Notes under the pieces: model-generated | Told to the model about the DNA's origin: nothing | Databases searched by the model: none | What the model saw: the letters and a program-made list of their open reading frames with translations, nothing else | Translations under genes and position numbers: made by a program | Assembly: GCA_016705125.1 (NCBI GenBank) | Contig: JADIYW010000036.1 | Span: 147,195-211,194, forward strand | DNA length: 64,000 nt | Origin: Bacteroidota bacterium | GTDB lineage: Bacteria; Bacteroidota; Bacteroidia; Chitinophagales; JADIYW01 | Reading direction: 5' to 3' | Shown: positions 12,348 to 40,067 of the stretch, piece by piece | Numbering within the stretch: the first letter of the stretch is position 1 | How the letters are laid out: the number at the start of each line of letters is the position of its first letter

Positions 12348-14998
12348 TGAAAAAAATTCTAATTATAAATTTATTCCTAATTTTTTGTCTTCAAAAAGGA
12401 CATAGTCAATCTAGAATTGATTCAGTAAATGTTGATTATGCCAAACCAGGTACTTTTATTTTGGCAGGTTATGACATAACAGGTACAAACTTTTTAGATA
12501 AATCCATTATTAAATCTCTAACGGGATTAGTAATTGGCGAAGAAATTGAAATCCCTGGAGAAGAGATATCCAAAGCAATTAGAAATTTATGGAAACAAGG
12601 TTTATTCTCAGATGTTTCAGTATATCTTACAGAGGTTGAAGGTCAAAATGCTTACTTAACCATTCAAGTAACCGAAAAACCTAAATTATCTGGATTCAAA
12701 TATGAAGCACGCAAATTAAAAAAAGGAGATATTGAGGATTACAATAAAAAATTAGATGCATTAAAAGGAAAACCAATTACCGAATCCTTAAAATTGAACG
12801 CTAAAAACATTTTAGAAGACCATTTTTCAGAAAAGAAATTCCTTTATCCTTCCATTGTAATCACCGAAGAAAAAGATAGTCTTTTGCCAAATGGAAGTTT
12901 TTTAAATTTAAAAATTGATAAAGGACCAAAAGTTAAAATTGACGAAATTACCTTTGAAGGGATTGAAATAGGTGATGAAAGAAAGATAAGAAAAGCAATG
13001 AAAGGCACTAAAGCAAAAACTAGTGTAAAATTTATTAAACCAGAAGATAAAGAAATTTTTACTGATAAAACCAAAAGACGCAATTTCTTATATACTATTG
13101 CCAATTTAAATTGGAGATCAGTAAGAGATTTTTTTAGTGACAGAGTTAGACTTTCTATTTTTAAAGCCTCAAAGTTCCAAGAAGAAACCTACGAAACCGA
13201 CAAAAGAGCTGTTATTGATTATTATAATAGCATGGGTCATCGAGATGCAACAATTACATTCGACACTGTATATCGTTCATCAAATAATGGCTTAAAAATA
13301 GAAGTCAAAATTAATGAAGGCAAAAAATACTATTTCAGAAATATCGATTATAGAGGTAATGCAAAATATTCGAACGAACAACTTTCGAAAATAGTAGGCA
13401 TTAAAAAAGGAGATGTTTATAATGCTCAATTATTGCAAAAAAAATTATCCCTTGACCCCAATGGAACCGATGTTTCTACCTTATATTATGATGATGGTTA
13501 TTTATTTTTCTCAATTAATCCAACTGAAACTGCAATTGTTGGAGATTCAATTGACTTGGAAATAAGAATAAATGAAGGACCACAAGCAACCATTAAAAAT
13601 ATAATCATTGTCGGTAATGACAAAACGAATGAAAATGTAATAAGAAGAGAATTACGAACATTACCTGGTAATAAATTTAGTCGAACAGACCTAATTCGGT
13701 CGCAAAGGGAAATTGCTAACTTAGGATTTTTTGATGCTGAAAAAATTGAAGTCAATCCAATTCCACATCCTGAAGATGGTACTGTGGATATTGAATACAA
13801 AGTGGTAGAAAAATCTGCCGACCAAGTAGAGCTTTCAGCTGGCTGGGGTGGATCTCAAGGTTTAATTGGCACATTAGGCCTTTCATTCAATAACTTTTCA
13901 ATAAAAAACATGTTTAAAAAAGGTGCTTGGTCACCACTTCCAACAGGTGATGGTCAGAAACTAAGCATAAGAGCACAAAGTAATGGTAAAAGATATCAAA
14001 CTTACAATTTCTCGTTTACTGAGCCTTGGCTTGGTGGGCACAAACCAAATTCATTTTCAGTAAGTGCTTTCAGCTCCCGTTTTCAAGAAATAAATAGTGA
14101 TAGAACTGTAACTGGTAAGCAAATAACCAACGGATTTTCAATCGGCTTGGGCACAAGATTAAAAAGACCAGATGATTATTTTATTCTTCAAAGTTCATTT
14201 AATTTCCAAAATTATAACCTTAAAAACTTCAAACAATTTATTGGAAATAATGGCGAATTTATTTCAAATGGAAGTTTTAATAATATGAATCTTAAGCTTT
14301 CTTTATCTCGAAACTCCATCGACCAACCCATTTTTCCTACTAGTGGTGCAAACATTGAACTTACAGGTCAATTTACACCACCTTATTCTGTTATTAAAAA
14401 AAGGGACTATTCTGAACCTATTCCTGCTGATGAAAAATATCAATGGATTGAATACCACAAATGGCGTTTCAATGTAGATTGGTATCAATCATTAGGTAAA
14501 AAATTCGTTTTAAGAACTGCAGCAAAATTTGGTTTCCTAGGAACATATAATAAGAAAAATGGATTATCTCCATTTGAAAGATATGAAGTAGGTGGTAACG
14601 GATTACCTGGAAATGTGCAATTATTTGGTACAGATATCATTTCCCATAGAGGTTATAATGTATATTCTCCTTCAGGTGGAGCAGCATTATTCAACAAATT
14701 TACGGTAGAACTTAGGTATCCTTTCTCTCTTAATCCACAAGCCTCTGTTTGGGCTACAGCATTTTATGAATCTGGTAATTCTTGGAATGGATTTAAAGAA
14801 TATAATCCTTTCAAACTTAACCGAAGTGTTGGTATGGGTATAAGAGCTATGCTACCAATGTTTGGTCTTTTGGGTGTTGATTACGGTGTTCGATTTGACT
14901 CCCAACCAGGAAGCTTAATAACTCCAGCTAAAGGATTTTTTGATTACATAGGAAAAAATGGAGAATTTACAATAATTTTAGGGTTTGAACCAGAATAA
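12344..14998 (+). CDS. bamA: Outer-membrane protein assembly factor BamA
   Basis: 884-aa ORF with a signal peptide, repeated POTRA segments and a C-terminal Omp85 barrel. Its ATGA start overlaps the uppS stop, and it is followed by two ompH genes, the classic synteny. Confidence 0.92.
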   Translation: MMKKILIINLFLIFCLQKGHSQSRIDSVNVDYAKPGTFILAGYDITGTNFLDKSIIKSLTGLVIGEEIEIPGEEISKAIRNLWKQGLFSDVSVYLTEVEGQNAYLTIQVTEKPKLSGFKYEARKLKKGDIEDYNKKLDALKGKPITESLKLNAKNILEDHFSEKKFLYPSIVITEEKDSLLPNGSFLNLKIDKGPKVKIDEITFEGIEIGDERKIRKAMKGTKAKTSVKFIKPEDKEIFTDKTKRRNFLYTIANLNWRSVRDFFSDRVRLSIFKASKFQEETYETDKRAVIDYYNSMGHRDATITFDTVYRSSNNGLKIEVKINEGKKYYFRNIDYRGNAKYSNEQLSKIVGIKKGDVYNAQLLQKKLSLDPNGTDVSTLYYDDGYLFFSINPTETAIVGDSIDLEIRINEGPQATIKNIIIVGNDKTNENVIRRELRTLPGNKFSRTDLIRSQREIANLGFFDAEKIEVNPIPHPEDGTVDIEYKVVEKSADQVELSAGWGGSQGLIGTLGLSFNNFSIKNMFKKGAWSPLPTGDGQKLSIRAQSNGKRYQTYNFSFTEPWLGGHKPNSFSVSAFSSRFQEINSDRTVTGKQITNGFSIGLGTRLKRPDDYFILQSSFNFQNYNLKNFKQFIGNNGEFISNGSFNNMNLKLSLSRNSIDQPIFPTSGANIELTGQFTPPYSVIKKRDYSEPIPADEKYQWIEYHKWRFNVDWYQSLGKKFVLRTAAKFGFLGTYNKKNGLSPFERYEVGGNGLPGNVQLFGTDIISHRGYNVYSPSGGAALFNKFTVELRYPFSLNPQASVWATAFYESGNSWNGFKEYNPFKLNRSVGMGIRAMLPMFGLLGVDYGVRFDSQPGSLITPAKGFFDYIGKNGEFTIILGFEPE

Positions 14999-22784: not shown

Positions 22785-24646
22785 ATGGAAAAAGGTACAA
22801 TTAATGTTCAGTCGGAAAACATATTCCCAATTATCAAAAAATTTCTATACTCTGATCACGAGATTTTTCTTCGTGAATTAGTTTCAAATGCGGTAGATGC
22901 TACTCAAAAACTCAAAGGCCTCGCTTCAATGGGCGAATTCAAAGGGGAATTGGCCGATATAAATGTAAAAGTAAAAATCAATAAAGAGCTTAAAACACTT
23001 ACCATTTCTGACAGTGGAATTGGTATGACTGCCGATGAAATTAAAAAATACATCAATCAAATTGCATTTTCAAGTGCGGGCGAATTTTTGGAAAAATTCA
23101 AAGGTGTTGAAGATGGAAAAACAATAATTGGTCATTTTGGATTGGGGTTTTATTCCTCCTTCATGGTTTCAGAAAAGGTGGAAATATTCTCAAAATCACA
23201 CAAAGACGAACCAGCAGTAAGGTGGGAATGTGATGGAAGCCCAGAATTTCAATTAGAAGAAATAGAAAAAGCAGAAAGAGGGACAGACATCGTTTTGCAT
23301 ATAAATGAGGAATCGATAGAATTTTTGGAAGAGCACAGAATCAAAACATTGCTTACCAAATATTGTAAATTTTTACCTATTCCTATCGAATTCGGCACAA
23401 AATATCAATCAGAAGAAGATAAAAAAGCAGAAAAACCAGTTGAACCAGAGATAATTAATAATACTGAACCCGCTTGGACAAAAGCGCCTAGCACCCTAAC
23501 GGACGAGGATTATTTAAAATTCTATAAAGAATTATATCCTTTTTCTAACGACCCCTTGTTTTGGATTCATTTAAATGTAGATTATCCTTTCAACCTGACA
23601 GGTATACTTTATTTTCCAAAATTAAACCAATCTTATCAAGTAGAAAAAATAAAATACACCTTTATTCAAATCAAGTATTTGTAACCGATAATGTAGGAGA
23701 AATTGTTCCAGAATACCTTACTTTATTGCACGGAGTAATCGATTCGCCTGATATTCCATTAAATGTATCGAGAAGTTATTTGCAAAGTGATGGTAACGTA
23801 AAAAAAATAAATAGCCATATTTCAAAAAAAGTATCTGATAAATTACAGGAGTTATTTAATAGCGACCGAAAAGCTTTTGAAGAGAAATGGAATGACATTG
23901 GTCTTTTTGTCAAATATGGCATGTTGAGCGATGAAAAATTTTATGGGCGCTCAAATGGTTTCTGCTTGCTTGAAAATACCGACAAACAATTCCAAACTAT
24001 TGAGGAATATAAAACAAAAATTGCCCCTCTTCAAACCGATAAAAATGGCGATTTGATTATTCTTTATACCGTTGATCCTGAACATCAACACAGTTATGTT
24101 CAAAATGTAAAAGAAAGCGGTTACGATGTTTTGAAATTTGATACTGTTATCGACAATCATTTTATACAACAAATGGAGTCTAAACTTGAAAAAACTCGTT
24201 TTAAAAGAGTAGATGCCGACATCGTAGATAATTTAATCGAAAAAGACGAAAAAAGAGAATCCATTTTAACCGAAGATCAACAAAATCTGCTTAAAGAGAC
24301 TTTTGAAAAAAGCGTTGATAAAAACACTATTAATGTAGAACTAAAACCGCTTTCACCAAGTGATTCACCAGTAATGATTACTCGAGATGAATTTATGCGT
24401 AGAATGAAGGAAATGCAAGCTTCAGGTGGAAATAATATGTTTATGATGGGCGATTTTCCAGAAAAATTCAATTTAATAATCAACTCAAATCACCCTATAA
24501 ATATTGCGCTTCTAGAAAAAGATGACGTTGAAAAACAACGACTTACAAAGCAATTATACGATCTAGCAATGCTATCACAAAACATGCTAAAAGGAGAGGA
24601 TCTAACAAATTTTGTTAAAAGAAGTTTTGAGATTGTTGCAAATTAA
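22785..24646 (+). pseudogene. htpG: Molecular chaperone HtpG (Hsp90), interrupted by a single +/-1 frameshift in an A6 run
   Basis: ORF 22785..23684 carries the N-terminal GHKL ATPase (LVSNAVDA, ISDSGIGMT, GHFGLGFYS). ORF 23561..24646 carries the rest from ...NKIHLYSNQVFVTDNVGEIVPEYLTLLHGVIDSPDIPLNVSRSYLQ. The frames join at GTAGAAAAAATAAAATAC, where the A6 run is 23644..23649. One extra A would give ...YQVEKNKIHLYSNQ. Confidence 0.9.
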
Positions 24647-24668: not shown

Positions 24669-25232
24669 TTGAAAAAGCTTTTTTTACTTTCTATTTGCCT
24701 AATTCCACTTTTCGTATTTGGTCAAGATACCATTGTTCCTAAACGACCAAAAACAACTATTGGCGTTTTTATTGGAGCTGGAAATAATGGACTTGCCAAA
24801 TCGGCAGGCTTTGATTTTAATGGCTTCGTAGAACGGCAATTGACCGAAAAAATCGATTTCTTATTCAAACATGGCGTGGTGCATAGTAGCCAATTCAATA
24901 AAGAGGAGGACGAAAACTATTTATTGGTAAAACGATATTTATTCCAAAAAACGAATGCTTCTATTTATTATGTGCCAATACGAAAGCCAAAACATGAATT
25001 TCAGATTGGCGGTGGACCACAATTTGCCTACTTATTCAGAAAAAAAGGACCAAACATTTTTGAAAAAGACAAATCCATTGCAGCTGGATTAGTTGCCTCC
25101 TGTATGTACGAGGCACGCCCATGGGAAAAAATAACGGTCGGTATGTATTTAAATTACGAACCCATGTTTGGTAAAAACAAAAATGGAGTTGGAAATACTT
25201 TTTTTGGTGTAGTAGTTGGGAGTAATTTTTAG
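24669..25232 (+). CDS. Small outer-membrane beta-barrel protein (porin-family-like)
   Basis: 187-aa ORF with a TTG start, a signal peptide (LFLLSICLIPLFVFGQ) and a C-terminal aromatic residue (F). Confidence 0.5.
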   Translation: MKKLFLLSICLIPLFVFGQDTIVPKRPKTTIGVFIGAGNNGLAKSAGFDFNGFVERQLTEKIDFLFKHGVVHSSQFNKEEDENYLLVKRYLFQKTNASIYYVPIRKPKHEFQIGGGPQFAYLFRKKGPNIFEKDKSIAAGLVASCMYEARPWEKITVGMYLNYEPMFGKNKNGVGNTFFGVVVGSNF

Positions 25233-25322: not shown

Positions 25323-26364
25323 TCATTTCGTTACTCTCGGTTTATAACCCGAACCTTCCAAAATTGCTCTTGAATTATCCATTTTCATCAATTCACTCAA
25401 ACTGACATTTGGGTTTTCCTGCATGTATTTCCTCACGATCATCCATCCAGTCCAAACGCCTACCTTGCCCGGGGCACCTGCAGGCATTCCTGAGGTGGTA
25501 GGTGCGTCCTCCAAATACTTTTTAAAATCTAACATACCTGGACTAAATAATAATTCTTTTCCAACAAAAACTCCCAAATTCTGCCTTCATTTAATTCGCA
25601 CCATTCCCAATTTTCCTTAGAATAATTAATCAATTCATATTGCTTCCTAAAAGGCAATATTTTTTCCATAAAATAACACGACTTGCCATAATAAATCATA
25701 TGATCTAACAAAAACCATTTTGAGGCAATTCAGTCATTAAATCAGTAGACATCACGTTTACAGCATTTATAACCATATTTTTGGGGTAAATCGCTCCACC
25801 ATAAAAGCAGGAAAATTCAAATCTGATGACTTATAGTACGGATAATCAACACCTAAATACATGTCAATTCCAACACCCAAGCATTTTTCAAAAGTAAATG
25901 CTTGATTTCCAAATTCTGAAATAAAAGTATAAATAGTAGGCACCGTACTATCTGGAAAATGCTTAACATAGTTTTTCATAGCTTTATTCATTTCCGATTC
26001 AAACTGTTTTAAATCTGGAAAATGAGATTGTGTCGTATCATAAAGTCCTTTAACGTATTTATTTGTTAAAAAATCGAGCACTAAAGGCGTATAACTATTA
26101 TAATCTCCAGCATTTGATGTTACTTGCAATACGCGCTCAAAATAAATATCATAAAAATCAGGATTCTTCTTTCTTAATGCCTGTAATCCTTCTAGCAAAT
26201 TATTGGGTGCTATTTTAAACAACTCTTCTTCAAATCTCAATTTTTACTGATTTAAAATCCTCAGCTGTGCCCGTATTAATTTGACCATTCTCTTTACCTC
26301 CAAACCATTTGCAAGAAGAAATGCTTAATAAAAATATAAAAAAATACTTGCTCTTATAAAATAT
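25323..26364 (-). pseudogene. gldB: Gliding-motility lipoprotein GldB, fragmented into at least 4 frame segments
   Basis: Fragments 25767..26240, 25529..25711 and 25323..25577, plus an upstream lipoprotein signal (FYKSKYFFIFLLSISSC) in another frame. The family-typical strings HMIYYGKSCYF, NWEWCELNEGRIW and VGVWTGWMIVRKYM...YKPR match my memory of GldB. The first junction lies in an A5 run (plus-strand T5 at 26241..26245). The position expected for the start codon reads ATA (26364..26362), with no in-frame ATG. Confidence 0.65.
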
Positions 26365-26395
26365 GAATTATGTATCAACATTTAAGTTAATTGAT

Positions 26396-26403
26396 TAAAT
26401 TTG
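26396..26403 (+). promoter_or_regulatory. -7 promoter box TAAATTTG upstream of the porin-family gene
   Basis: Exact TAnnTTTG 25 nt upstream of ATG 26428. Confidence 0.35.
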
Positions 26404-26427
26404 TAAAATAATTACAAAAATACATTT

Positions 26428-27205
26428 ATGAAACGAATACTTTTTATTTTAATTGCTATTTTTTCTTTACAAATTGTTAAAGGACAAAACGAAAATTTGA
26501 GATTTGGATTCACTGCAAGCCCTGGTCTTACTTGGTGGAAACCTGATAATACAGCTCACGAAAGCGGTGGAGCACGATTCGCCCTGAATTATGGTGTATT
26601 AATTGATTATAAGTTTGGTAACAATTCACGATATGCTCTTTCTACAGGTTTACTTTTAACTTTAGATGGCGGTAAATTAGTTGGCACTGGCACACAAGAC
26701 GAAATAATCGACCTTGGTGGTGGTGGAGAGAGATTTGGGATTTTTAATAATAATACCTTCCGACTTCCTCCATTTGACACCATAACCCGTAATATTGTAA
26801 CTACAATGACAACCAAAACTCAACATTTACAAATACCAATGGCCCTCAAATTGCGTTCTAATGAGGTTGGATACATTACCTATTATGGTTCTTTAGGAGT
26901 CATTCCTGCTTTTACAATTAGAAGAAGAGCCGATTTAACAAAATCAATTGATGATGTTGTAATTATAAATGAAGAAAATATTGATGCCAAAAATTTAGAT
27001 TTTTTATCCAAATAAAATTAAAAATATCAATCCATTCGATTTAGGTTTGTCTTTCGAAGCTGGTTTAGAATATTCAATGACAGAAAATACTGCCTTAGTT
27101 GGTGGCTTATTTTTCACCAATGGTTTCATTAATCAATTAGATGATGATGATAAAGAAAGAGTAGCTACTCGTAATTTCGGAATCAGAATTGGTGTTTTAT
27201 TTTAA
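26428..27205 (+). pseudogene. Outer-membrane beta-barrel (porin/PorT-like family) gene with one frameshift
   Basis: ORF 26428..27015 has a signal peptide and starts FGFTASPGLTWWKP. The last ~60 codons continue in another frame (…NINPFDLGLSFEAGLEYSMTENTALVGGLFFTNGF…IRIGVLF, then stop at 27203..27205). The switch is at a T6 run, 27000..27005. Confidence 0.6.
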
Positions 27206-27238
27206 TCGCAAAATGAAGATTATAATACATAATTAATC

Positions 27239-27258
27239 CCGCCTATGCGGATTTTTTT
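27239..27258 (+). terminator. Rho-independent terminator (CCGC-CTAT-GCGG followed by A and T7)
   Basis: GC hairpin followed by a T-run, 34 nt after the stop of the porin-family gene. Confidence 0.55.
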
Positions 27259-27275
27259 ATACTTTTTAATTAAAA

Positions 27276-28919
27276 ATGAAAATGAAAATAGCAATTGCAC
27301 AACTTAACCCTTTCATTGGAGACTTTGAAGGCACCTACAAAAACATCACCAATGCAATAAACACAAGCGATTACAGGGAATGCCGACCTCATTGTATTTC
27401 CTGAACTTTCAGTATGTGGTTATCCAACAAGAGATTTTCTAGACTATAAGCAATTCACAAAAGTGGCTTTACAAACTGTAGATAGAATTGCACAATTTGC
27501 AAATCGAAAAATTGGTGTTATTGTTGGTTCCCCTTCATTCAATCCAAATATTCAAGGTAAAGATTTATACAATTCTGCTTTTCTTTTAGATGGTGGAAAA
27601 ATAATTCATACTGCTAATAAGGCTTATTGCCAACTTACGATATATTCGATGAATACCGTTATTTTGAACCTGCTACCGAATTTTCAACCGTAGAATATAA
27701 AGGCATAAAAATCGCTATAACTATTTGTGAAGACATTTGGAATATTGGTAATGAAAACCCACTTTATACCGTTTGCCCAATGGATGAGCTGGCAAAACAA
27801 GGTCCCGATATAATGATTAATCTTTCGGCTTCACCATTCACTTATAGCCATGCTGCTGAAAGAATTGACATTGTAAAAGCAAATGCATTAAGGTATAAAA
27901 CACCATTTTTTACGCCAACCAAGTAGGTGCTCAAACCGATATTATTTTTGATGGAGGTTCGTTAGTCGTTGATAAACAAGGAAATATAATTAGAGAAATG
28001 CTTTATTTCGAAGAATGTATAGAAATATTCGATTTAAATAAAATTCAAAATGGAAATCATCCAATTTCTGCTCAACAACCTAAAGAAAAGTATCAATTAA
28101 TAAAAGATGCCATAGTAATAGGCATTAGGATTATTTCAAAAACTAGGCTTTAAAAAAGCAATTGTCGGCTTATCAGGCGGTGTAGATTCGGCGCTTACCG
28201 TAGCCTTCACTTCGAAGCATTAGGATCCGAAAATGTGCTTTCTGTGTTAAATGCCTTCGCAATACAGCTCCAACCATTCGGTAGATGATTCGATGGAATT
28301 GGTTAAAAATTTGAATTCCCCTTACAAGATAATTCCGATTAAAGACGTATATGATGCTTATGAAAAATGCTAAACCCACATTTTGAAAATCTTCCGCCCA
28401 ACGTAAACGGAAGAAAATATACAAGCACGTATCAGAGGAAATTATTTGATGGCATTGAGTAATAAATTTGGCTATATCCCTACTAAATACAACGAATAAG
28501 AGCGAAGCAGCAGTTGGCTATGGCACTTTGTATGGCGATTTGTGTGGTGGCATTGGTGTATTGGCGATGTATATAAAACAGAAGTTTACAAAGTATGTGA
28601 GGTAATAAATAAAGAAAAAACAATTATTCCAACACATTTTACACAGCACCAAGTGCAGAATTGCGACTATCCAAAAAGATTCGGATTCCTACCCGAATAT
28701 TCAATTTTAGACCCATTATTGTACGATTACATAGAAAATGAACTTGGACTAGATGAGCTTATAGAAAAAGGTTATGAACCTGCTTTGGTGCAACGCGTAT
28801 TGAAAATGGTAAACCGTGCCGAATTCAAACGTTATCAAACACCACCAATGATACGTGTATCTCAAAAAGCCTTTGGCATGGGCCGCAGATTGCCAATTGT
28901 AGGCAAGTATTTGGATTAG
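27276..28919 (+). pseudogene. nadE: Glutamine-dependent NAD+ synthetase (CN-hydrolase plus NAD-synthase domains), about 8-10 frameshifts
   Basis: Reconstructed by hand across frames: MKMKIAIAQLNP...NADLIVFPELSVCGYP...KALLPTYDIFDEYRYFEP...ICEDIW...FYANQVGAQTDIIFDGGS...GLSGGVDSAL...MPSQYSS...[15 protein letters not shown]...PSAEL...DSLP...FKRYQ. The tracked ORFs cover only pieces (27463.., 27627.., 28542..). One example junction is the T6 run at 27906..27911. Confidence 0.85.
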
Positions 28920-29138
28920 AAAAAGCAACAAACAAAACGATTACAAGCGATTATTCCAGTTTTAAAAGTGCCAAAATGATTTTTTTAATCCCAGCAATAT
29001 AAATCAGCAATTTATACCCGAACTGCTTTAAAACAAGGAATAAAAGAACCTTAATCTTCATTATAAGCCAGCATGCAGGATTAACTTTTTCAACTTACAC
29101 TTTATAGGGTAGGTTCGTAAAAACAAAAACTATATTCT

Positions 29139-29876
29139 TCAATACTCGATTTTTCTATCCAAGCGTAACTCCATCGGCAATAATACCTTTTGCCAATCGC
29201 CTCTTCTTTCGCATATATATACTTTCAACCCTTTTGGAAATTGAACAACATTATTCGACAATAAATGGGCTTGCTCTTTCAAAATCGTTGATTTTATTAC
29301 AATTGCACTTTTTGTATTTTGTTCTATTTGGTATGTTTTATACGTTAAATTAAATACAAAAAAATAGCCAATATAAAAAGTAAAATACTTAAACAATAAA
29401 ATATAACTTTTCGCTCTTTAAGATTTGACTTTATAGCTAAATATAAAAACAAGACACTACACCAAAAAACTATTATCAATAAATAAGTAAAGGAATTTGA
29501 ATGATTTGGCAATATGTTTCCTATTAAACTGTTTAAAATAATCGAATCCTTTATATCGGTCTTATACGATAAATTAATTAATTCTAAGGTTTCCAAATTT
29601 TTTCTAGCATCATTATTACTTGGATTTATATTTAATGCCCTTTCAAAAATACAATATGCTTCTTGTTGTATCTCCCTAATTTTAAATAGGCATTTGCCAT
29701 ATTATAAAATACAATATCGTTGTTATTCAGCTGTTTATACAATTGGAGAGAAGTTGCATATTCTCCTTTATCATAAGCATCATTGGCTTGTTTAAAAATG
29801 GCTGCATCTCCTTTTCATTTCCATATACAAATAGAAAAAGGAAATTCAAAACGATAAAAACAATTGATTTACGCAT
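29139..29876 (-). pseudogene. batE: BatE-like protein (TPR, TM and C-terminal SH3), frameshifted
   Basis: ATG at 29876 (MRKSIVFIVLNFLFLFVYG). TPR-like ...FKQANDAYDKGEYATSLQLYKQL...NMANAYLKLG appears in shifted frames. The TM fragment is ORF 29345..29596. The SH3-like C-terminus is in ORF 29139..29396 (KGLKVYICERRGDWQKVLLP). Boundaries are approximate. Confidence 0.55.
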
Positions 29877-29879
29877 TTT

Positions 29880-31676
29880 CTAGCTTTTAAATTGTTCATC
29901 CAAATGCTCCAGTAAATTAAGCGCTTCCACATATAATCCATTCATTCCAACCCTTGTCACTTAAAAGGTGAAAACAAAGCCCGTTCACATTGCTCCAAAA
30001 TGGCAATGTATTTATTTTTTACTATCCACATCAAGTTCAAATTTTGCAAACAATTCCATCATCTTTTCTTTGCTTATTACATAAAAAGTGGTGCCAGTTT
30101 TAGTTGTCATGTATCCCAACATTGCCTCGCTAATGGCTTTATAAAATGGTTTTTCTTCTTGCTGGTCTAAGTGCTTCTTTGCTTCTGCCAATTCTTTGTA
30201 ATCGTTTATTTTACTAGCATTTTTGTTTATATTCTTATTGCTTTTTTATTTCCATTTTAACCAAAAGCCTAGAAATAATAAAATTGGCAAAACCATTGCA
30301 ACATAAAACCAATTGATCCAAAAATGATGTAGACCCACTTTTTTGTTTAGAAAACAATTTTTCTATTCTTTTGAGCACTCGACTTTTTCTTTCCTTTTCG
30401 CCCTCATCCAAATCATCCTTTCCTCTTCATTCCACATTACAACTACTTTTATTGTTTCTCAGGAAAAACGACTCTATTATAATCCTGTTTTCCATCAAAA
30501 TAAGATATGGAATAGCTTGGAATCGTATAATTTCCTGCCTTTTGTGGCAAAACGAGGTATTCAAATTGTTTCATCCCGACAACATCACCTGTTTGGGTAT
30601 TTATTTCTTCTTTTATTTTTGGATTATACACTTCAAATTCAGCTGGAAAAACAGGTTTTTGCAAATTCAACAATTTTATATTGCCCTTTCCTCGTACTTT
30701 CACTGAATAGTTTAAAGGCTCGCCCGCTTTCACTTCATCTTTATCAAATTCGGCAATAAAAGAAAATTTTCCGATTCCTCCACAAAAATCATCTGGTTTT
30801 ATTCCATTGCCCAAGGGTTTAACTCGGATGGTAATGGGCTCACTTTGAATTTTAACTTTAAAGTCTTGGATTTTAAAACCAGCAGGACCAATCATTATTG
30901 GAATAACACAACTCAATTCAATTGGATCAATTACAAAATCACCAGATTTAATAGGAAATAAACCTACTTTCATGAAAGTTTGACAGTTATACAATTTGCC
31001 ATTATACTTTTCTTCGTGTTGTTCTTGTATTGATTTGTCAATTTCCATATCATAGGAATAGAAATTTTTTGAACGATGGATTTTGGCAATTTGTAAATCC
31101 TCCACACGGATTAAATAAAATACCTTAAAAGTCAAAACCACTTGCTGCCCCTTCAAAAACAGATGTTTGTCGACAAATGCCCTTACAAAATATTAGATTT
31201 AACTTGTTCCTCTATCGATTGGTTTTCATCCTCTTTTGATGGCGCATTGCTATTATTATTGGGTTTTGGAGTAGATCATGTATTATTAATTGGCTCGCCT
31301 GACTTACAATGTTTATAGTCAAATCATTGGATTTAAAGGATTTGCCATTTATAATTGCAGTTGCACCTTTATTTTTATCTTTCCAGCTTTAGTTGCCTTT
31401 AGTAAATAAGAGAATGTCTTTTTAAGATATTTTACCATTAATTACCTCATAATTTGAAAATCTACTTAGCCATACAAAAATTTCAAAATGAACACTCCAA
31501 TTTAGTGTTACAAGATCGTAAAGTCTGCATTTTCAATTATATATGCAATTTCAATTTTATCCCCAACACTTATTGTGCTTTTAGATGCAATTGCATAAAA
31601 AACTTACCTGCTGAGGATTTGAAATTTGCGGCATTACAAATACCATAAAATCAATAAATACAACGATTTCAGCCAA
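29880..31676 (-). pseudogene. batD: BatD-family protein, multiple frameshifts
   Basis: The central fragment is ORF 30449..31156. N-terminal (...QQVSFYAIASKSTISVGDKIEIAYIIENADF...) and C-terminal (...HLDQQEEKPFYKAISEAMLGYM...LLEHLDEQFKS, then stop) parts were recovered in other frames. One junction is at the plus-strand A6 run 31597..31602. The start may be the TTG at 31676. Confidence 0.6.
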
Positions 31677-31701
31677 TTTAATTTCGATATGTATTTATAC
31701 T

Positions 31702-32426
31702 TTACCAATCCTTTCCGTTTTTGCCATTTTGTTGTGCCTCCGCATTTCCCTTATATAGTTTTTGTTGAACCTTTTGTTCTTCATTTTTAGGGCTTGCATG
31801 AGTCGCTTCTCCTGCTCTTTATTCATCTTTTGTTGAGGTGTTTCCTTTTCCTTTTGTCATCCTGCTTATCCTTTTTTGCTCTTCCTTTTTGTCTTGATTT
31901 TCCTTGTCTTCGATCCTTTTTTCTTTATCCTTTTGTCTTGGTTTTCCCTTTCTTTTATCTTTTTATCTTGATTCTTTTTATCTTTTTCGTCCTCCTTAGA
32001 TTTCTTTTGTAATCTTTCATAGTCAAAATAAGGTTATACCGAGTGTTTTGATCATTGGGAATCAATTTTAAAGCCGATTTATAAGCAGTTATCGCATTCT
32101 GAAAATCTTTTGATGGTAATAGCATTTCCCCAAATTATGAAATGCCCTTCCTCGATGTGTTAAATCATTCAATCGAATAGTTGCAAGAGTAAAACTACCA
32201 ATTGCATTTTTGTAATCTTTTAATTTATATAATGCAACACCATAATTATTTAAACCAATCGCATTTACAGAGTCCAATTCCAACGCACTTTTGTAATGTT
32301 GTGCAGCGAGTTTGTAATCCTTTTCCTTATAAAATTGATTGCCATTCTTTAAATATTTCAAAATGGCATTTTCTTTCTTATTGCCAAATAATCCAAAAAA
32401 CAAAAACAAACAAAAATTACCCTCAT
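31702..32426 (-). pseudogene. batC: BatC-like TPR protein with K/D/E/Q-rich tail ending ...KDW, frameshifted
   Basis: The TPR fragment is ORF 32089..32409. Later parts (...DFQNAITAYKSALKLIPNDQNTRYNL..., a low-complexity KDK/QDK region, then MNKEQEKRLMQALKNEEQKVQQKL...GKDW and stop at 31702..31704) lie in other frames. Confidence 0.6.
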
Positions 32427-33451
32427 TTCTATTTTTTCTTTTAAACGATTTAAAATGTAGGTATTCAACGATTTGCCAAAGAATGAAAGCATTAAAAAGA
32501 ATAAACCTATTCCAATAAAATATTGGAATTTGCTTACATAGTCAAGGAATAATTTTTCCTTGTACTTTCGTTTCTCCTGTTTGTCAATTGCATCAACAAC
32601 CGCTTTTTTAGTGTTTTTTCTTCCTGTTAAGTGAAATATTCACCGCCACCAGCTTTGGCTATTTCCTTTAATTTTTTCATTTATAATAGAAATTACTTCC
32701 TTTCCATTTTCATCCTTTTAAACTCTATAAAATTATTGTTATCATCATACTCTGGAATTGTGCTTCCTTTCGTTTCTCCTACACCGATAGTGTAAATTCT
32801 TGTTCCATTTTTTAAAAGCTGCCTTTGCCTTTTTAAGCGCTTCTTTATTAAAAGTTTCTCCATCCGAAATTAATAATAAGGTTTTAAAATTTTTATCTCC
32901 ACTTACAAATGCATGCTCTGACACGTCAATGGCAGCTCCAATATCGGTTCCTTGGTTCTGAATTAGGGAGGGAACTGCATTTTCTAAATACATATTAAAT
33001 GCACTATAATCAACGGTTAGCGGCATTTGCAAATAAGCATTTCCCGCAAATACAACAAAACCGACACGATGTCCATGAAACTGATCTATTATGCTAGAAA
33101 CCAACGCCTTTGCCCGTTCAAGTCTGTTAGGTTTAATATCTTCCGCCATCATACTTTTGAAATATCTAAGGCAATTATCACATCAACACCTGTATTGGCA
33201 ATCGTTGATTCTTTTTACCCATTCGAGGATTTGCTAATCCTAAAATAAAAAATATAAGAGCAAGTAGAAACAAAATTGTCCTTATAAATAAGGTTTTATC
33301 TTTTTTCCAATAAATAGATTCTCACCAAATCTTTGTCACCAATAGCCTCTAATTTCAAACGCTGTCTTCGCAAAAAATCGAAAGACACCCACCATAGTAT
33401 TGGAATTAACCAAAGAAGTACAAAATATGCCGGTTTTTCGAATTGCATCAT
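32427..33451 (-). pseudogene. batB: BatB-like von Willebrand factor A (vWA) membrane protein, frameshifted
   Basis: The N-terminus MMQFEKPAYFVLLWLIPILW starts at 33451. The vWA core is in ORF 32745..33152 (...RVGFVVFAGNAYLQMPLT...LLLISDGE). The C-terminal TM segment is in a further frame. The 3' boundary is approximate. Confidence 0.6.
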
Positions 33452-34422
33452 AGTGTATTTGGTAAAAGATATTTTAATTAAAAACAATAAAATCAAACAA
33501 AAATACCCAAACCCACAAAAGGAAAAAAATAATTCTTCTTTTGTTCATAGCTTTCCATTTTAATTTTAGATTTTTCTAGATTGTCGATATTGTGATATAT
33601 TTCTTAAGCTTATTGCCATCAGTTGCTCTAAAATATTTTCCATTAGTTGATTCAGCCACTTTTTTTAAAAGTTCTTCATCTATTTGCACATCCATTTTTC
33701 TATAATATATTTCCCCAAAAGCGTCCATTTCAGGATAAAGTGCTTTTCCCTTCGAACCTATACCAATGGTATATACCCTTACTCCGTTTGATTTTGCTAA
33801 TTCTATCGCCGAAATAGGATCGATATATCCTGCATTATTAATTCCATCCGTCATCAAAATCACTACTTTGCTTTTCGCTTTGCTATCCACTAAGCGGGTA
33901 CTGCAGTAGCCAAACCCATACCAATAGCGGTGCCATCATCCACTATCCTACTTTGTATATTTCGAAATAAGTTTATCAATACATCATGGTCGGTTGTAAT
34001 GGGACACTGGGTAAAACTTTCGCCAGCAAAAACAACCAATCCAATTCTATCATTTTGGTCGGCCGGCGATAAAACTTTTTAGCCACCTGTTTAGCTGCTT
34101 CCAACCTGTCAGGTTTAAAATCTTTAGCCAACATACTACTAGAAATATCGAGAGACAGCACAATATCAATGCCTTCTGAATTTACACTATTGCCACTCAT
34201 CGATTTTTGCGGCCTTGCCAAGGCGATTACCATCAACACAAAAGCCATTAACCATAGGACATCGTGTATTTTCAACAACTTAAATTTCCAGCTACTAGTA
34301 TCACTTTGAAATTGTTTTATATTCGATAATTTTAGCTGAATTCCACTTGTTGCTTTGGTTTTATTTAATTTATATAAATAAAAAGCACTAAAATAAGCAA
34401 CAGAAAAACCATGGATGGGCAA
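33452..34422 (-). pseudogene. batA: BatA-like vWA membrane protein, multiple frameshifts
   Basis: ORF 33976..34422 contains ...ALARPQ...EGIDIVLSLDISSSMLAKDFKPDRLEAAK. ORF 33576..33890 contains KVVILMTDGINNAG...VYTIGIG. The intervening DRIGLVVFAGESFTQCP-type segment is recoverable only by switching frames. Boundaries are approximate. Confidence 0.65.
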
Positions 34423-34440
34423 AACTAAAATTACTAAACA

Positions 34441-35343
34441 CTTTGATTCTCATTTAAGTCGTTAATAAATTTAATTCCATCGGTAATTATCGATAGATGA
34501 TACTCTTCTTCAGGTAATGCTTTTGCAAATTTTACTTTATCAGACAAATTCAATAATCCTTTAATTCTTCCAAGTTATTTTGACCAAAACCTCTTTTTTC
34601 AAAATCAAACAATATATCTGTTGAAGACCGTTCAATTGTTTTTATTGACTTCGCCTCTTTTAGATATATTCTTATAATATCCGATACTTGAGTATAAAAA
34701 TATTTCTCCCCTTTTGTAAGCCACGATTTTTCAATAGACAATGCTTCAAATGCATTAATTGCTTTTTGATAAGGAGAAATTAAAATTGAATCTTTTTTAG
34801 ATTCTATTTTAACTGATTTTTTTCTAATCGTAATAAAATAAACGATTACAGCCATTATTGAAAAAATAATTAAGCCCAATAAAACCCATTTTACCCATCC
34901 GTATTTAGGCATTTCAACACCAATTGGCGATTTTATTACTTTCAATCCTTTGGTTGTGTCTACCGAATTGTCCCTATAAAAACAGGTATTTTGTTTGTTT
35001 TTAGATAACTAGAAGAAGAATCATTTGTTTGTGAAAAATTAAAAGACGGAATTTCTTGCCATCCTGTATCATAGCAAGTAAGAATTACTCTTTGTGTGTA
35101 TTTATTAAAATTACCCTGAATGCTTGTATCTATTTTATCCAAATAAACGGTATCAAAACTTGTGTTATTCATTTTAAAATCCGTCCAAGTCAATGACTCA
35201 TTTTTTGGCACTTCGGCCGTAAAGGTAAGTGTTATCCAGTCTGCAATAAGGTGATTAGCGGTATCCAACTTTACCCTAATCGTTTGACTATCTACCATTA
35301 AGGGTATCATTATCAAAAATAATATGGCGTACAATTTAATCAA
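34441..35343 (-). pseudogene. Conserved Bat-operon membrane protein (between DUF58 and batA), at least 2 frameshifts
   Basis: ORFs 34960..35343 (signal peptide) and 34550..34945 (central TM), plus a C-terminal tail LNLSDKVKFAKALPEEEY... in a third frame that ends at TAG 34441..34443. Confidence 0.5.
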
Positions 35344-36247
35344 ACCCTATTTTTGAAAAATTTAATTAATGGTTTTATATAATCTTCTTTAGTAGAAATG
35401 GAAATGGTATCTGCTCCGGCCTTTAAAAATGCATTTTTAAACAAATTAGTGTTGAAAATGAACTGCTTATGATAGTCATATCTTGTTTGAGCATTTGAAG
35501 TATCTATCCATCTTTTTTGACCAGACTCCACATCTAAAATTTCGATTAGGCCAACATCTGGAAGTGTTGCATCTATAGGGTCAAATACTTGAATCCCTAT
35601 CATATCATGTTTTCTTTTAGAATGCGTTAATTGTTTTTCAAAATCAGATGTAAGAAAGTCTGATAAAATAAATACAATGCTTTTTTCTTCACCACATTAT
35701 TTAAAAACTCTAAAGAATTTGCCAAATTGGTTGTCGTTCCTTTGCTTTCGATATTTAACAACTCTCTTATAATCAACAAAATATGTCCTTTCCCTTTTTT
35801 CGGAGGAATATATTTTTCAACTTTATCGCTAAATAACAATAAACCAACTTTGTCATTATTTGCAATTGCTGAAAAAGATAAAACAGCACACAATTCGGTA
35901 ATAAGTTGATTCTTTTGTCTACGAATAGAGCCTAAAAAAGAGAAGCACTTATATCTACCATCAAAACAACGGTTAGTTCTCTTTCCTCCTCAAAAACTTT
36001 AACAAAAGGCGAATTTAATCGGGCAGTTACATTCCAATCGATGTTTTTTATGTCATCACCAAAGGCATAATCTCTTACCTCACTAAAAGACATGCCTTTT
36101 CCCTTAAATGCAGTATGATATTCGCCTGCAAATAAATGATTAGACAATCCTTTAGATTTTATCTCAATCTTTCTTACGCCCTTTAAAAGTTCTTTAAATC
36201 CACTAATAAATTTTAATAATGCAACAAATACAACGATTACAGTCCAT
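35340..36247 (-). pseudogene. DUF58-family protein (MoxR-associated), fragmented
   Basis: Three fragments: 35932..36147 (GEYHTAFKGKGMSFSEVRDYAFGDDIKNIDWNVTAR), 35627..35893 and 35340..35603. The ATG at 36247 is in yet another frame. Confidence 0.7.
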
Positions 36248-36248
36248 A

Positions 36249-37239
36249 TTAAGGCACATTTACCTTGTTTAGAATTTGAGAAATAATATCATCACTATTT
36301 ATATTTTCTGCTTCAGCTTCATAAGTAATCCCTATTCTATGGCGAAGCACATCATAGCAAATAGCACGAACATCTTCTGGAATTACGAAACCTCTTTTTT
36401 GCATAAATGCATGCGCCTTTGCTGCCATAGCTAAATTTATAGAAGCACGTGGCGAACCACCATAGCTTATTAGGGGCATTAAATCTTTCAATCCATAATT
36501 TTCTGGCCTACGACTACAAAAACCAAATGCAATATATACTGTTCAATTTTTTCATCCATATACACTTTTTTACCAAAGTTCTTGCGGCAATTAATTGTTT
36601 AGCATTTACTACAGGATTTATTTTACTTTCTATACCCAAAACATTTTGTCTCATAATTTGTCGCTCTTCTTCAAACTCTGGATAGCTAATTTTTATTTTT
36701 AGCATAAACCTATCCACCTGAGCTTCAGGCAAAGGATAAGTTCCCTCTTGTTCGATTGGATTTTGAGTGGCCATAACCATAAAAGGTTCTTCTAACTTAA
36801 AAGTTTCATTACCAATAGTAATTACCTTTTCTTGCATAGCTTGCAATAATGCACTTTGTACTTTGGCTGGAGCTCGGTTTATTTCGTCTGCTAAAATAAA
36901 ATTTGAAAATATAGGTCCTTTTCTAACTTCGAAATTACCCTTTCCTTGATTATAAATCATGGTGCCAATAATATCAGCAGGCAATAAATCTGGGGTAAAC
37001 TGAATTCTACTAAAACCAACAGAAACAGCATCTGAGAGTGATTTAATGGCTAAAGTTTTGGCCAATCCGGGTACGCCTTCCAATAAAATATGGCCCTGAC
37101 ATAATAGTGCCAACAAAAGTCTATCGGTCATGTATTTCTGACCAATAATATTTTTTCCAACTTCCTCCTTTATTAAATCTAAAAAACTACTCTCTTGTTT
37201 TATTTGATCATTTAAGATTCCAATTTCTATATTGTCCAT
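36249..37239 (-). pseudogene. moxR: MoxR-family AAA+ ATPase, 2 frameshifts near the C-terminal third
   Basis: ORF 36514..37239 has Walker A (GVPGLAKT) and Walker B (LADEINRA). The C-terminus is ORF 36249..36491. The joining segment VKKVYMDEKIEQYILHLVF needs a frame change at an A6 run (plus-strand T6 at 36566..36571) and another about 50 nt later. Confidence 0.85.
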
Positions 37240-37367: not shown

Positions 37368-38762
37368 ATGAAAATCAAATCTTTACTCCTAATCGTTATT
37401 TTTTGTTTTTTGCAAAAAGAAATTTCTGCTCAAGCAAGTTCCAAAATTTTAAAAATTGACAAAAGACTCCGGTCTTTTATCGTTTATAAACCATCAAATT
37501 ATAGCGAAGGAATGCCTTTGGTGCTAAATTTACATGGCTTTACCTTAACAGGAAGTGCCCAAATGTCGTATACCAATTTCAATAGATTTGCTGATTCCGT
37601 GGGTTGCATGGTTGTTTACCCAACAGGCATTCAGAAAAGATGGGGTGCTGGCACTTTTATGGGCGTCGATAACAAGGTTGATGATGTGAGCTTTTTGGGT
37701 CAATTGATCGATTATATGGCCATTAATTATGCAGTTGATTTAACAAGAGTATATTCAATTGGATATTCGGCTGGGGGATTTATGAGTTATAGATTAGCCT
37801 GTGATTTATCTGGTAGAATTGCTGCAATTAGTCCAGTTGCATCGAGCATGACTCAAGAAGTATTTAGCGATTGCAATCCAACAAGACGTATTCCGATATT
37901 GTGTATGAATGGCACTAGCGACCCAGTGGTAAGTTATTATGGTATTCCGGGGCAATTTCCATCTACAAAAAAAGTTGTTGAATTTTGGACTAAAGATAAT
38001 TTATGCGACCCAATTGTAATTGAAGATACCTTACCAAACCTTGCTGTAAATGACAATAGCAGAGTAACTAAAACAGTTTATCTGGGTTGTGGTGCGAATG
38101 CCCCATTTGAGTTTTATAAAATACTTTATGGCGGTCATACCTGGCCAGGAGCTAAGCCTTTTGGAATATTAGGCAATACCAATCAGGACATCAACGCAAA
38201 CAAAATAATATGGGATTTCTTATCGCAATACGATATTCCTCAAGAAATGGTTTGCGTCAAACCTAGCAATTTATCCAGCAATATCAACGACTGCAGCGCT
38301 ATTCTATCATGGAATTCTGTAGGAGGCACAACAGGTTATCGAATTTCAATTATAGACAATACTGCTAAAGAAATGAAGATATATCAATCAAATACTAATT
38401 CACTTTCTATTCCTACAATTAGTGGCAACAATTACAGTTGGGGAGTTGCAGCCAATTGTGATGGCAATTTTTTCAACTTAGCTGAAGGCCCTTCTTTTAA
38501 TTCATGTGGAAATGGGATTTCAAATAAACTAGCAAAAGACAATTCTTTTAACTTGTTTCCAAACCCAACACGAGACATATTGTATTTTCAATTTGACAAA
38601 ATAATCGGTAATGAATTGGTTCAAATCGTTGATATTGTTGGGCGAAACATAAAAGAATTCAATTTAATCGAAGGACAAAATCAAATTCTTGTTGCTGATT
38701 TAGAAGTTGGAATGTATTTTATCAAAACTTCCTTTGGAAGTTTTGGATTTGTTAAGCAATAA
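37368..38762 (+). CDS. Secreted esterase of the PHB-depolymerase/LpqC family with a T9SS C-terminal sorting domain
   Basis: 464-aa intact ORF with a signal peptide, LNLHGF..., a GYSAGG nucleophile elbow and a middle Fn3-like segment. The C-terminal FNLFPNPTRDILYFQF...VGMYFIKT... matches the type-A Por secretion tail. Confidence 0.8.
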   Translation: MKIKSLLLIVIFCFLQKEISAQASSKILKIDKRLRSFIVYKPSNYSEGMPLVLNLHGFTLTGSAQMSYTNFNRFADSVGCMVVYPTGIQKRWGAGTFMGVDNKVDDVSFLGQLIDYMAINYAVDLTRVYSIGYSAGGFMSYRLACDLSGRIAAISPVASSMTQEVFSDCNPTRRIPILCMNGTSDPVVSYYGIPGQFPSTKKVVEFWTKDNLCDPIVIEDTLPNLAVNDNSRVTKTVYLGCGANAPFEFYKILYGGHTWPGAKPFGILGNTNQDINANKIIWDFLSQYDIPQEMVCVKPSNLSSNINDCSAILSWNSVGGTTGYRISIIDNTAKEMKIYQSNTNSLSIPTISGNNYSWGVAANCDGNFFNLAEGPSFNSCGNGISNKLAKDNSFNLFPNPTRDILYFQFDKIIGNELVQIVDIVGRNIKEFNLIEGQNQILVADLEVGMYFIKTSFGSFGFVKQ

Positions 38763-39521: not shown

Positions 39522-40067
39522 TTAAAAAATAAATGGGATGATGAAATGAGTCATAATCAGGCCTCCTATAAAAAAGCCAATTACAGCAATTAATGATGGC
39601 AACTGTAAATTGGATAAACCACTAATAGCATGTCCTGAGGTACACCCATTAGCATACCTTGTTCCAAAGCCAATTAAAAAACCTCCAACTAATAAAATTA
39701 AAATGCCTTTTATTGATTTTAATCCATCTAAGATAAAAGAAGGTAAGTAGTTATTTTGATCAATACCAATTTCTTTTAAGGCTTCATTGGTTTTAGCCGA
39801 TAATAAAATATCATGAGTTTCCGTTAAATAATTATATGCAAAAAATCCTCCAAGTATAGTACCTAAAACAAAAACAAGGTTCCAAATATCTTGTTTCCAA
39901 TCAAAATTAAAAAAAGAAGAAAATTTTCCGGCACCACCGATGGCACACATGGTTCTTAAATTTGAACTAAGCCCAAATTTTTTCCCAAAATATAATAACA
40001 AAAACAAAATAACACTAATGGCAGGACCAGCAACATACCAAGGCCAAGGAGAAAGTAAAAATTCCAT
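39522..40067 (-). CDS. YeeE/YedE-family sulfur-compound transport protein (large half)
   Basis: 181-aa polytopic protein with an NGCTSGH motif. Its stop is 1 nt from the start of the next gene. Confidence 0.75.
   Translation of the reverse strand: MEFLLSPWPWYVAGPAISVILFLLLYFGKKFGLSSNLRTMCAIGGAGKFSSFFNFDWKQDIWNLVFVLGTILGGFFAYNYLTETHDILLSAKTNEALKEIGIDQNNYLPSFILDGLKSIKGILILLVGGFLIGFGTRYANGCTSGHAISGLSNLQLPSLIAVIGFFIGGLIMTHFIIPFIF

Follow-up and report, generated by a model that had tools for sequence, protein, structure and literature searches.

In the 64,000-nucleotide window (the whole stretch of DNA analysed here), eleven consecutive genes from gldB to moxR (positions 25323–37239) are shattered by ~100 indels of 1–3 bp. 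We assign a probability of about 94% to this 11-kb block being uncorrected Oxford Nanopore R9.4.1 consensus left inside a hybrid-polished metagenome-assembled genome (MAG), because other assemblies of the same species keep the genes intact. The organism's own copies of these genes are most likely intact.

Extent and indel spectrum of the block

Lists of open reading frames (ORFs) contain only short ORFs at 25.3–37.2 kb and long ORFs in both flanks, including one for bamA at 12344–14998 (884 codons). We called private indels from an alignment of the window against 36 loci from conspecific contigs and obtained 100 window-private events of 1–3 bp, 99 of them within 25565–36565 and the other at 23643 (binomial P = 1.6e-74 for the clustering; Table 1). 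From 25 to 36 kb, the counts per kb were 3, 4, 6, 15, 8, 13, 20, 8, 11, 6, 2 and 3, and every remaining kb of the window had none apart from the single event at 23643. Intergenic DNA inside the patch was struck to the same extent as the genes. An earlier reading of this DNA from sequence alone (the sequence-only reading) had described twelve broken genes with ~30 junctions, set in a window with a single further frameshift in htpG. The sharp localization and the lone htpG frameshift are both borne out and the affected genes do form a consecutive block; however, eleven genes are broken, the twelfth gene found in relatives (a secreted protein of 518–521 aa between nadE and batE) is absent from the window, and the junctions number ~100.

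Table 1. Features of the window. Indel events per gene were counted against an Illumina reference.
Feature	Position	Strand	Length in relatives	Observation in the window
htpG	22785..24646	+		one 1-bp deletion at 23643 (A7 to A6), 1.9 kb left of the patch
Error patch	25565..36565			99 private 1–3 bp indels (~9 per kb at a median spacing of 56 bp); also ~30 error-like substitutions
gldB, gliding-motility lipoprotein	25323..26381	-	354 aa	5 indel events
Outer-membrane beta-barrel protein (PF13568)	26428..27205	+	258 aa	1 indel event
nadE, glutamine-dependent NAD+ synthase	27282..28920	+	548 aa	16 indel events
Short allele of strain-hypervariable locus	28921..29129			209 bp, ~100 bp of it matching no other variant
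batE-like TPR protein	29130..29876	-	248 aa	10 indel events
batD (PF13584)	29869..31646	-	598–619 aa	31 indel events, plus a private nonsense substitution
batC-like TPR protein	31702..32426	-	243 aa	13 indel events
batB (VWA domain)	32429..33451	-	343–345 aa	9 indel events
batA (VWA domain)	33448..34453	-	336 aa	11 indel events
Bat-operon membrane protein	34434..35298	-	288–300 aa, no Pfam match	2 indel events
DUF58 protein	35340..36203	-	288 aa	3 indel events
moxR AAA+ ATPase (PF20030, PF07726)	36249..37239	-	330 aa	2 indel events (36517 -A, 36565 -T)

The gene identities first proposed (gldB, an outer-membrane protein, nadE, batE to batA, DUF58 and moxR) proved correct in domain and family matches of the intact orthologs. 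The gldB ortholog scored 206.5 bits against TIGR03514 GldB_lipoprot (cutoff 190) and the nadE ortholog 651.5 bits against NF010588 (cutoff 479), and intact orthologs matched the Pfam families BatD, BatA/VWA, TPR, DUF58 and bpMoxR/AAA_3. They fell short of the cut-offs of the Leptospira-specific NCBIfam models for Bat proteins, which is what 'exception' models would be expected to give. In the intact orthologs, the order is moxR (AAA_3/bpMoxR), DUF58, membrane protein, two VWA proteins, TPR, BatD and TPR, which matches the Bacteroides fragilis Bat operon in gene order and domains. Set against the MoxR-DUF58-BatA-BatB-BatC-BatD-BatE operon of Bacteroidota, the species has an ordinary intact operon and only the copy in this assembly is garbled. 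The gldB start codon, thought to have become ATA, is a normal ATG at 26381–26379.

Of the 100 private indels, 65 removed and 22 added a single base, and the other 13 were 2–3 bp long; deletions made up 77% and the largest event was 3 bp. Inside the patch, the homopolymer miscall rate depended on run length (0.2%, 0.8%, 2.6%, 3.1%, 20%, 36%, 58% and 67% for lengths of 1 to ≥8), with runs mostly shortened. Outside it, a single miscall was found among 680 runs of length 5, 6, 7 and ≥8 (395, 181, 70 and 34 runs, respectively). All five junctions that had been located by hand were recovered: +T at 27000, -T at 27904 (the 27906–27911 run), +A at 31597, -T at 36565 (the 36566–36571 run) and -CA at 26237, adjoining the T5 at 26241. 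The accompanying statement that junctions lie mostly in homopolymers holds for about half of the indels, which are in runs of ≥5, while the others are in shorter runs or mixed-base sequence. Programmed frameshifting and phase variation were considered and rejected, as the ~100 events are spread over 11 genes and intergenic DNA without a recurring motif.

Intact genes in conspecific assemblies

All eleven genes are intact in over 15 independent conspecific assemblies (97–98.5% nucleotide identity), Illumina-only ones among them. Intact versions are found in the MEGAHIT/SPAdes Illumina assemblies ERZ27258455, ERZ27258477, ERZ27258471 and ERZ22158435, and the full set is unbroken in the Illumina assemblies as in most sister MAGs; the comparison with close relatives that the sequence-only reading had suggested finds an intact ortholog for every broken gene. 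All 99 patch indels are private to the window. A 53-mer of the window spanning four private indels had no exact match in genome or metagenome collections, and its corrected form was present in two further independent metagenome contigs. A BatD protein query against the genome-contig collection returned no match.

Sister Nanopore MAGs of the species show indel patches at this locus too, each with a set of its own, whereas Illumina assemblies have almost none. In MAG JADKCJ there are 38 private small indels across ~17 kb, and in MAG JADKKU a cluster of 9. The window and JADKCJ have 4 indels in common, against 2.7–3.0 expected at error-prone runs (P = 0.24–0.34); shared ancestry of the two sets was rejected, since the overlap is at chance level.

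The balance of indels and substitutions distinguishes the patch further. Relative to an Illumina reference, the patch has a ratio of small indels to substitutions of 0.42 (103/247) and the window flanks one of 0.008 (3/363); among Illumina assemblies and well-polished Nanopore MAGs of the species it is 0.000–0.01, so that the patch stands at ~50 times the natural ratio in this species. At the patch margins (25–27 and 35–37 kb), there are 0–2 substitutions per kb relative to the nearest strain, yet 2–4 frameshifting indels per kb.

Private substitutions and the case for gene decay

Private substitutions are also concentrated in the patch, with 73 in these 11 kb and 21 in the remaining 53 kb (~10-fold enrichment), and some form clusters, for example at 27803–27946 and 34219–34303. 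By class, the patch substitutions include 31 synonymous, 28 non-synonymous and 1 nonsense change, where random changes would give 20%, 74% and 5%, respectively. The nonsense change, in batD, contradicts the initial impression that no substitution-type nonsense codon was present. About half of the private patch substitutions look like genuine strain differences and are mostly synonymous, which makes the patch a truly distinct haplotype as well. When the frame-corrected genes are counted in the manner of dN/dS, the private substitutions come out as a roughly half-and-half mix, selected-looking and random-looking, a result that by itself does not separate error from neutral decay.

These observations bear on genuine recent pseudogenisation, in which relaxed selection and slippage indels would have deprived the strain of the MoxR/Bat operon, of gliding (gldB) and of NAD amidation (nadE). 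The indels are contiguous over dispensable-looking genes, private substitutions are enriched among them together with the one nonsense codon, and homopolymer slippage is a real mutational mode too. Nevertheless, we consider this origin very improbable. Neutral bacterial decay yields roughly one indel per 5–20 substitutions in mutation-accumulation and pseudogene studies, a ratio that would need 5–15% private divergence where ~0.7% is observed, and the patch instead has 99 indels against 73 private substitutions with a single nonsense codon. Real decay also has a tail of larger deletions, whereas no indel here exceeds 3 bp. In the patch, 58–67% of runs of ≥7 are struck, against none in the flanking genes, and nadE, normally an essential gene, is among the casualties. 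The lesions appear in no other assembly, they extend equally into intergenic DNA, and sister Nanopore MAGs differ in their indels at the same place. We therefore reject the relaxed-selection reading offered earlier, given that the genes are intact elsewhere in the species and that indels exceed what the substitutions justify by ~50-fold.

Pseudogene blocks are known from reductive evolution in Mycobacterium leprae, Sodalis and host-restricted Bacteroidota, and the patch resembles them in having consecutive frameshifted genes that are still family-like. In those blocks, however, substitutions, nonsense codons and larger deletions occur in proportion, and lesions are common to related strains and scattered genome-wide; in the window, the indel-to-substitution ratio is 0.42, events are ≤3 bp, and everything is private to one assembly and one patch. 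The parallel with host-restricted Bacteroidota that had been drawn finds no support in the organism, which belongs to an abundant activated-sludge lineage of Chitinophagales with a genome of ~3.3 Mb.

A local hypermutation or mutator effect in this segment only, arising from mismatch-repair deficiency or a slippage-prone replication context, would account for a spectrum of 1-bp homopolymer indels like that of mismatch-repair-deficient bacteria. Such a defect would act genome-wide, yet only 1 of the 680 runs of ≥5 in the other 53 kb has changed, and we know of no mechanism that would confine it to 11 kb. In addition, long homopolymers account for only about half of the events and 23% are short-run insertions, as is typical of low-depth Nanopore consensus, and at this locus other Nanopore MAGs show indels that differ from these, Illumina assemblies none. 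We regard this explanation as the most remote of those considered.

Probable polishing failure at a strain-variable locus

The window very probably derives from MAG AalE_18-Q3-R2-46_BATAC.579 (JADIYW, Chitinophagales midas_s_108); two of its proteins are deposited at NCBI as MBK6340828.1 and MBK6340818.1. Residual homopolymer indel errors in Nanopore assemblies reportedly fragment gene calls, as Watson and Warr are said to have described in 2019. The MAG was sequenced with Nanopore R9.4.1 chemistry (raw reads under PRJNA629478, sample AalE_18-Q3-R2-46) and has coverages of 14.1 for Illumina (ilmcov) and 16.2 for Nanopore (npcov), with a polymorphic rate of 0.0176. In its source pipeline, Nanopore reads were assembled with CANU, polished with Racon and medaka and then corrected with Illumina reads using 'Racon --include-unpolished' (Singleton et al., PMC8012365). 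R9.4.1 consensus is known to retain gene-fragmenting homopolymer indels in the absence of short-read polishing, above all at depths under 40x (Sereika et al. 2022, PMC9262707). With such assemblies, the patch has in common 1-bp deletion-biased indels, homopolymer-length dependence and frameshifted, truncated ORFs, and its source pipeline is of the matching type, residual R9.4.1 errors being corrected only by short-read polishing and worst at low coverage. It differs from them in that errors are confined to one 11-kb stretch beside a strain-variable locus, with the other 53 kb essentially clean. Such confinement to one patch implies a polishing failure that would have been local, not global. 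The alternative proposed in the sequence-only reading, a low-quality or unpolished long-read stretch, is strongly supported by indels that are private, 1–3 bp long, deletion-biased and homopolymer-dependent.

The stretch between nadE and batE is hypervariable among strains, with at least four structural alleles; in relatives it is occupied by the 518–521 aa secreted protein or by other gene sets, and the allele at this locus is the only large difference between the window and its relatives. Searches with Pfam and PADLOC for a function of the proteins at this locus gave no matches, and a search for a tRNA integration site there found none. Indels within the hypervariable gene are also seen in Nanopore MAGs that are otherwise clean.

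We infer that the patch spans this locus with the assembly holding a rare short allele, such that local contig support would come only from minor-haplotype reads and Nanopore depth would fall far short of the 16x mean. On the Illumina side, either too few reads would be available or they would map to the contig of a sibling strain, and the last short-read correction would then leave stretches untouched. Error density, at 3–6 per kb at the edges and 13–20 per kb in the centre, tapers in a way that fits a coverage dip near the variable locus. As a counterpoint to polishing failure, a mean Illumina depth of 14x should normally suffice, and 150-bp reads would still map at 1–2% error.

A different kind of artefact is also conceivable, namely a consensus of at least two diverged strain haplotypes (a collapsed bubble at the hypervariable locus) or a raw long-read bridge. 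The position of the patch astride a locus with so many alleles, the 1.8% polymorphic rate of the MAG, the clustering of private substitutions and the indels in the hypervariable gene of even clean Nanopore MAGs would all fit. Substitution-level differences alone would not yield homopolymer-length-dependent deletions, however, and we regard this origin as possible but on the unlikely side. There is only a slim chance that the frameshifts are real in a minor midas_s_108 strain, through slippage decay beside the hypervariable locus, or, in a weaker form, that a biological property of the locus, such as extreme strain microdiversity or local DNA modification, repeatedly defeats Nanopore consensus in independent MAGs.

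Under the preferred reading of uncorrected Nanopore consensus, the block holds no new biology and its value is mainly as a warning. The JADIYW MAG is the species representative in its source study, and annotation would render its entire MoxR/Bat operon, along with gldB and nadE, as pseudogenes or fragments; one such product is already deposited, as the +T at 27000 shortens the outer-membrane beta-barrel protein to 195 aa (NCBI annotation MBK6340818.1). Trait or metabolic inference from this genome would therefore miss these functions and score them, wrongly, as absent from the organism. Homopolymer-length dependence, the indel-to-substitution ratio and conspecific short-read contigs together provide a test of error patch against gene decay that needs no reads. 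The case also suggests that, in metagenome assemblies, long-read error patches tend to gather near strain-variable loci. Lastly, the deletion in htpG is a stray residual error of the kind found in the patch: all 10 of 10 relatives covering position 23643 have A7 and a 620-aa HtpG.

Fragmentation of the gldB–moxR block and its intact orthologs

The six-frame ORF list contains only short ORFs at ~25.3–37.2 kb of the window and long ORFs on both sides, confirming the gene block fragmentation described in the sequence-only reading; GC content is unchanged across the block, at about 0.30–0.36. Eleven genes are broken rather than the twelve first counted, and the junctions number about 100 rather than about 30, with all five of the individually named junctions borne out. 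Family models (NCBIfam and Pfam) applied to orthologs upheld the proposed gene names: GldB and NadE orthologs score above NCBIfam cut-offs, and Pfam BatD, BatA/VWA, TPR, DUF58 and bpMoxR/AAA_3 match the orthologs. Start codons are intact in every broken gene, including gldB, for which the reported ATA was a register error and ATG is present at 26381–26379.

Relatives were found by exact-sequence look-up of intact proteins flanking the block (a 187-aa protein at 24669–25229, the Sulf_transp protein at 39525–40067 and others at 9742, 20501 and 54681), which returned many same-species contigs at 97–98.5% nucleotide identity. These include eight NCBI MAGs (JADJ/JADK accessions), GCA_963851685, Illumina MEGAHIT/SPAdes assemblies (ERZ27258455, ERZ27258477, ERZ27258471, ERZ22158435 and ERZ22158310) and several JGI metagenome contigs. 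Comparison with these close relatives, a check that had been suggested from sequence, found the genes whole in virtually every one. One 53-mer from the window that carries four private indels (differences of the window from conspecific contigs) had no exact match in genome or metagenome collections; its frame-intact version does not differ between Illumina and Nanopore relatives and is also present in two further independent metagenome contigs.

Broken genes and neighboring features of the window, with positions or forms in relatives (L-numbers, aligned relative loci) and indel events relative to the Illumina reference
Feature	Window position	Position in relatives	Form	Indel events in window
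gldB			354 aa in relatives	5
OMP_b-brl_2 protein			258 aa in relatives	1
nadE			548 aa in relatives	16
batE-like TPR			248 aa in relatives	10
batD			598–619 aa in relatives	31
batC-like TPR			243 aa in relatives	13
batB			343–345 aa in relatives	9
batA			336 aa in relatives	11
Membrane protein without Pfam match			288–300 aa in relatives	2
DUF58			288 aa in relatives	3
moxR			330 aa in relatives	2
htpG	22785–24646 (+)		620 aa, split in window	
nadE–batE hypervariable locus		L007:14305–15861; L004:14494–16809; L044:18367–20295		
Allele, most strains			518–521-aa secreted protein with signal peptide	
Allele, other strains			alternative set: four or five small ORFs	
Allele, one strain			IS (DDE_Tnp_1) and PIN_3 gene disrupting nadE	
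Allele, window	28921–29129		209-bp spacer, about 100 bp of it unique sequence	
464-aa protein	37368–38762 (+)		intact, borders patch	
~4.7-kb island	equivalent to ~38.8–39.1 kb	L012:11447–15815; L020:11447–12377	present in two strains	
Second variable spot	~17–19.5 kb	L021; L022; L027:18693–20882		

Indel signature of an 11-kb patch

The whole window was aligned to 36 loci, and a difference was kept as private if at least three contigs covered it and ≥70% of the other covering contigs agreed against the window. Among 100 private indels, 99 fall within 25565–36565 (the patch; P = 1.6e-74 for this concentration), at densities from 25 to 36 kb of 3, 4, 6, 15, 8, 13, 20, 8, 11, 6, 2 and 3 per kb. 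The remaining one, at 23643, agrees with the earlier observation that htpG holds the sole frameshift outside the block: a 1-bp deletion splits the gene by reducing to A6 a run that is A7 in 10/10 relatives. This error, 1.9 kb from the patch, is of the kind found within it and may represent a thin left tail of the patch. Private indels are of 1 bp (n = 87), 2 bp (n = 11) or 3 bp (n = 2), none being larger, and comprise 77 deletions and 23 insertions.

True homopolymer runs in the patch were counted after reverting the private indels. Runs of length 1, 2, 3 and 4 were miscalled in 0.2, 0.8, 2.6 and 3.1% of cases and runs of 5, 6, 7 and 8 or more in 20, 36, 58 and 67%, almost all long-run miscalls being under-calls. 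In the other 53 kb, a single discrepancy occurs among 395 runs of 5, 181 of 6, 70 of 7 and 34 of 8 or more bases. No known mutation regime alters more than half of the 7-mers in 11 kb and spares 680 adjacent long runs; a mutator effect, which could produce such indels, cannot be confined to 11 kb. The patch instead resembles documented Nanopore R9.4.1 consensus, in which homopolymer indels persist and fragment gene calls (PMC9262707).

Each assembly was also compared with an Illumina reference contig, with the hypervariable locus left out. The patch carries 103 small indels per 247 substitutions (ratio 0.42), compared with 3 per 363 in the window flanks (0.008) and ratios of 0.000–0.01 in Illumina assemblies and well-polished sister MAGs. 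At the patch margins, 0–2 substitutions per kb separate the window from its nearest strain, versus 2–4 frameshifting indels per kb. Real pseudogenisation, one of two explanations initially offered for the broken frames, would with 99 indels require 5–15% private divergence, larger deletions and some lesions common to related strains, none of which was seen, and it is rejected. The other, a locally low-quality or unpolished long-read stretch, is supported by the homopolymer signature, the indel:substitution ratio and the intact relatives: the broken block is not a biological feature. A collapsed mixed-haplotype consensus may contribute, which would still be an artefact.

Private substitutions number 73 in the patch versus 21 elsewhere in the window. 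Coding ones in the patch are 31 synonymous, 28 non-synonymous and 1 nonsense (in batD, the only private nonsense substitution); random expectation is 20, 74 and 5%, respectively, and in flanking genes about 80% of substitutions are synonymous. This composition suggests that about half of the private patch substitutions reflect real differences between strains and that substitution errors account for about 30, which would bring total patch error to roughly 1.2% (about Q19), a plausible rate for very low-depth R9.4.1 consensus.

Source assembly and sister MAGs

The window very probably derives from a low-coverage Nanopore MAG. The JADJ/JADK MAGs come from Singleton et al. 2021 (PMC8012365), in which CANU assembly of Nanopore reads was followed by Racon, two rounds of medaka (r941 model) and a last Illumina pass with 'Racon --include-unpolished'. 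In that study, JADJMC is a member of the Chitinophagales assigned to midas_s_108 (Supplementary Data 3), a lineage with 12 MAGs; the three entries covered here give Illumina coverage of 8–14x, Nanopore coverage of 8–25x and polymorphic rates of 1.6–2.4%; AalE_18-Q3-R2-46_BATAC.579 (JADIYW000000000; ilmcov 14.1, npcov 16.2) is listed there as species representative for the lineage. The patch matters only because it leaves eleven genes misreported in a species-representative MAG. Window proteins deposited at NCBI (MBK6340828.1 and MBK6340818.1) are the 464-aa T9SS-tail protein and a 195-aa truncated OMP, which owes its existence solely to the +T at 27000.

Sister MAGs carry patches as well. JADKCJ (loci L044 and L015), which has an IS (DDE_Tnp_1) in nadE, has a ~17-kb stretch, overlapping the patch of the window, with 38 small private indels; JADKKU has a nine-indel cluster at the gldB 3' end; and in otherwise 'clean' Nanopore MAGs the hypervariable 518-aa gene is split, at differing points. 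Illumina assemblies have essentially no such indels. Shared ancestry of the window and JADKCJ indels was rejected, since the two have 4 deletions at long runs in common versus 2.7–3.0 expected by chance (P = 0.24–0.34); overlap at chance level indicates independent errors. Scattered unpolished patches seem to characterise this species' Nanopore MAG set as a whole.

Both large patches (window and JADKCJ) straddle the nadE–batE locus, for which four or more structural alleles are seen; the secreted protein of the commonest has no Pfam or PADLOC match. With 1.8% polymorphic sites in the metagenome, only reads of the rare-allele haplotype may have been laid out across this locus. Long-read depth would then drop locally at the rare allele, short reads there would be few or recruited to a sibling contig, and the final Racon pass would leave under-covered stretches uncorrected. 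The taper in error density towards the patch edges fits such a dip in depth.

Other variable spots

A ~4.7-kb island that separates the DUF6691/Sulf_transp gene from the T9SS-tail protein in two strains holds several unknown ORFs along with genes for a tyrosine integrase and an HTH_17 protein; the island is absent from the window, and no tRNA gene occurs anywhere in the window. The second variable spot has the highest SNP density in the window (80–114 polymorphic sites per kb). There, downstream of the Glyco_tran_28_C gene, an 847-aa unknown protein replaces dus and an Rce1-like gene in some strains, and in L027 it is interrupted by an rve-type IS. Gene calls are missing or split elsewhere in further Nanopore MAGs of the species, L033 (GCA_016706485, JADJJN), L017 (JADJGP) and L014 (JADKKU): for example, an aminotransferase and atpA are not called, and OSCP, Wzy_C and adh_short are split. 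The 464-aa protein has a T9SS C-terminal sorting domain (PF18962), is named 'polyhydroxybutyrate depolymerase' at JGI and may thus act as a secreted esterase or PHB depolymerase. Its sequence varies among strains; comparison with the Illumina reference gives 19 synonymous and 7 non-synonymous differences.
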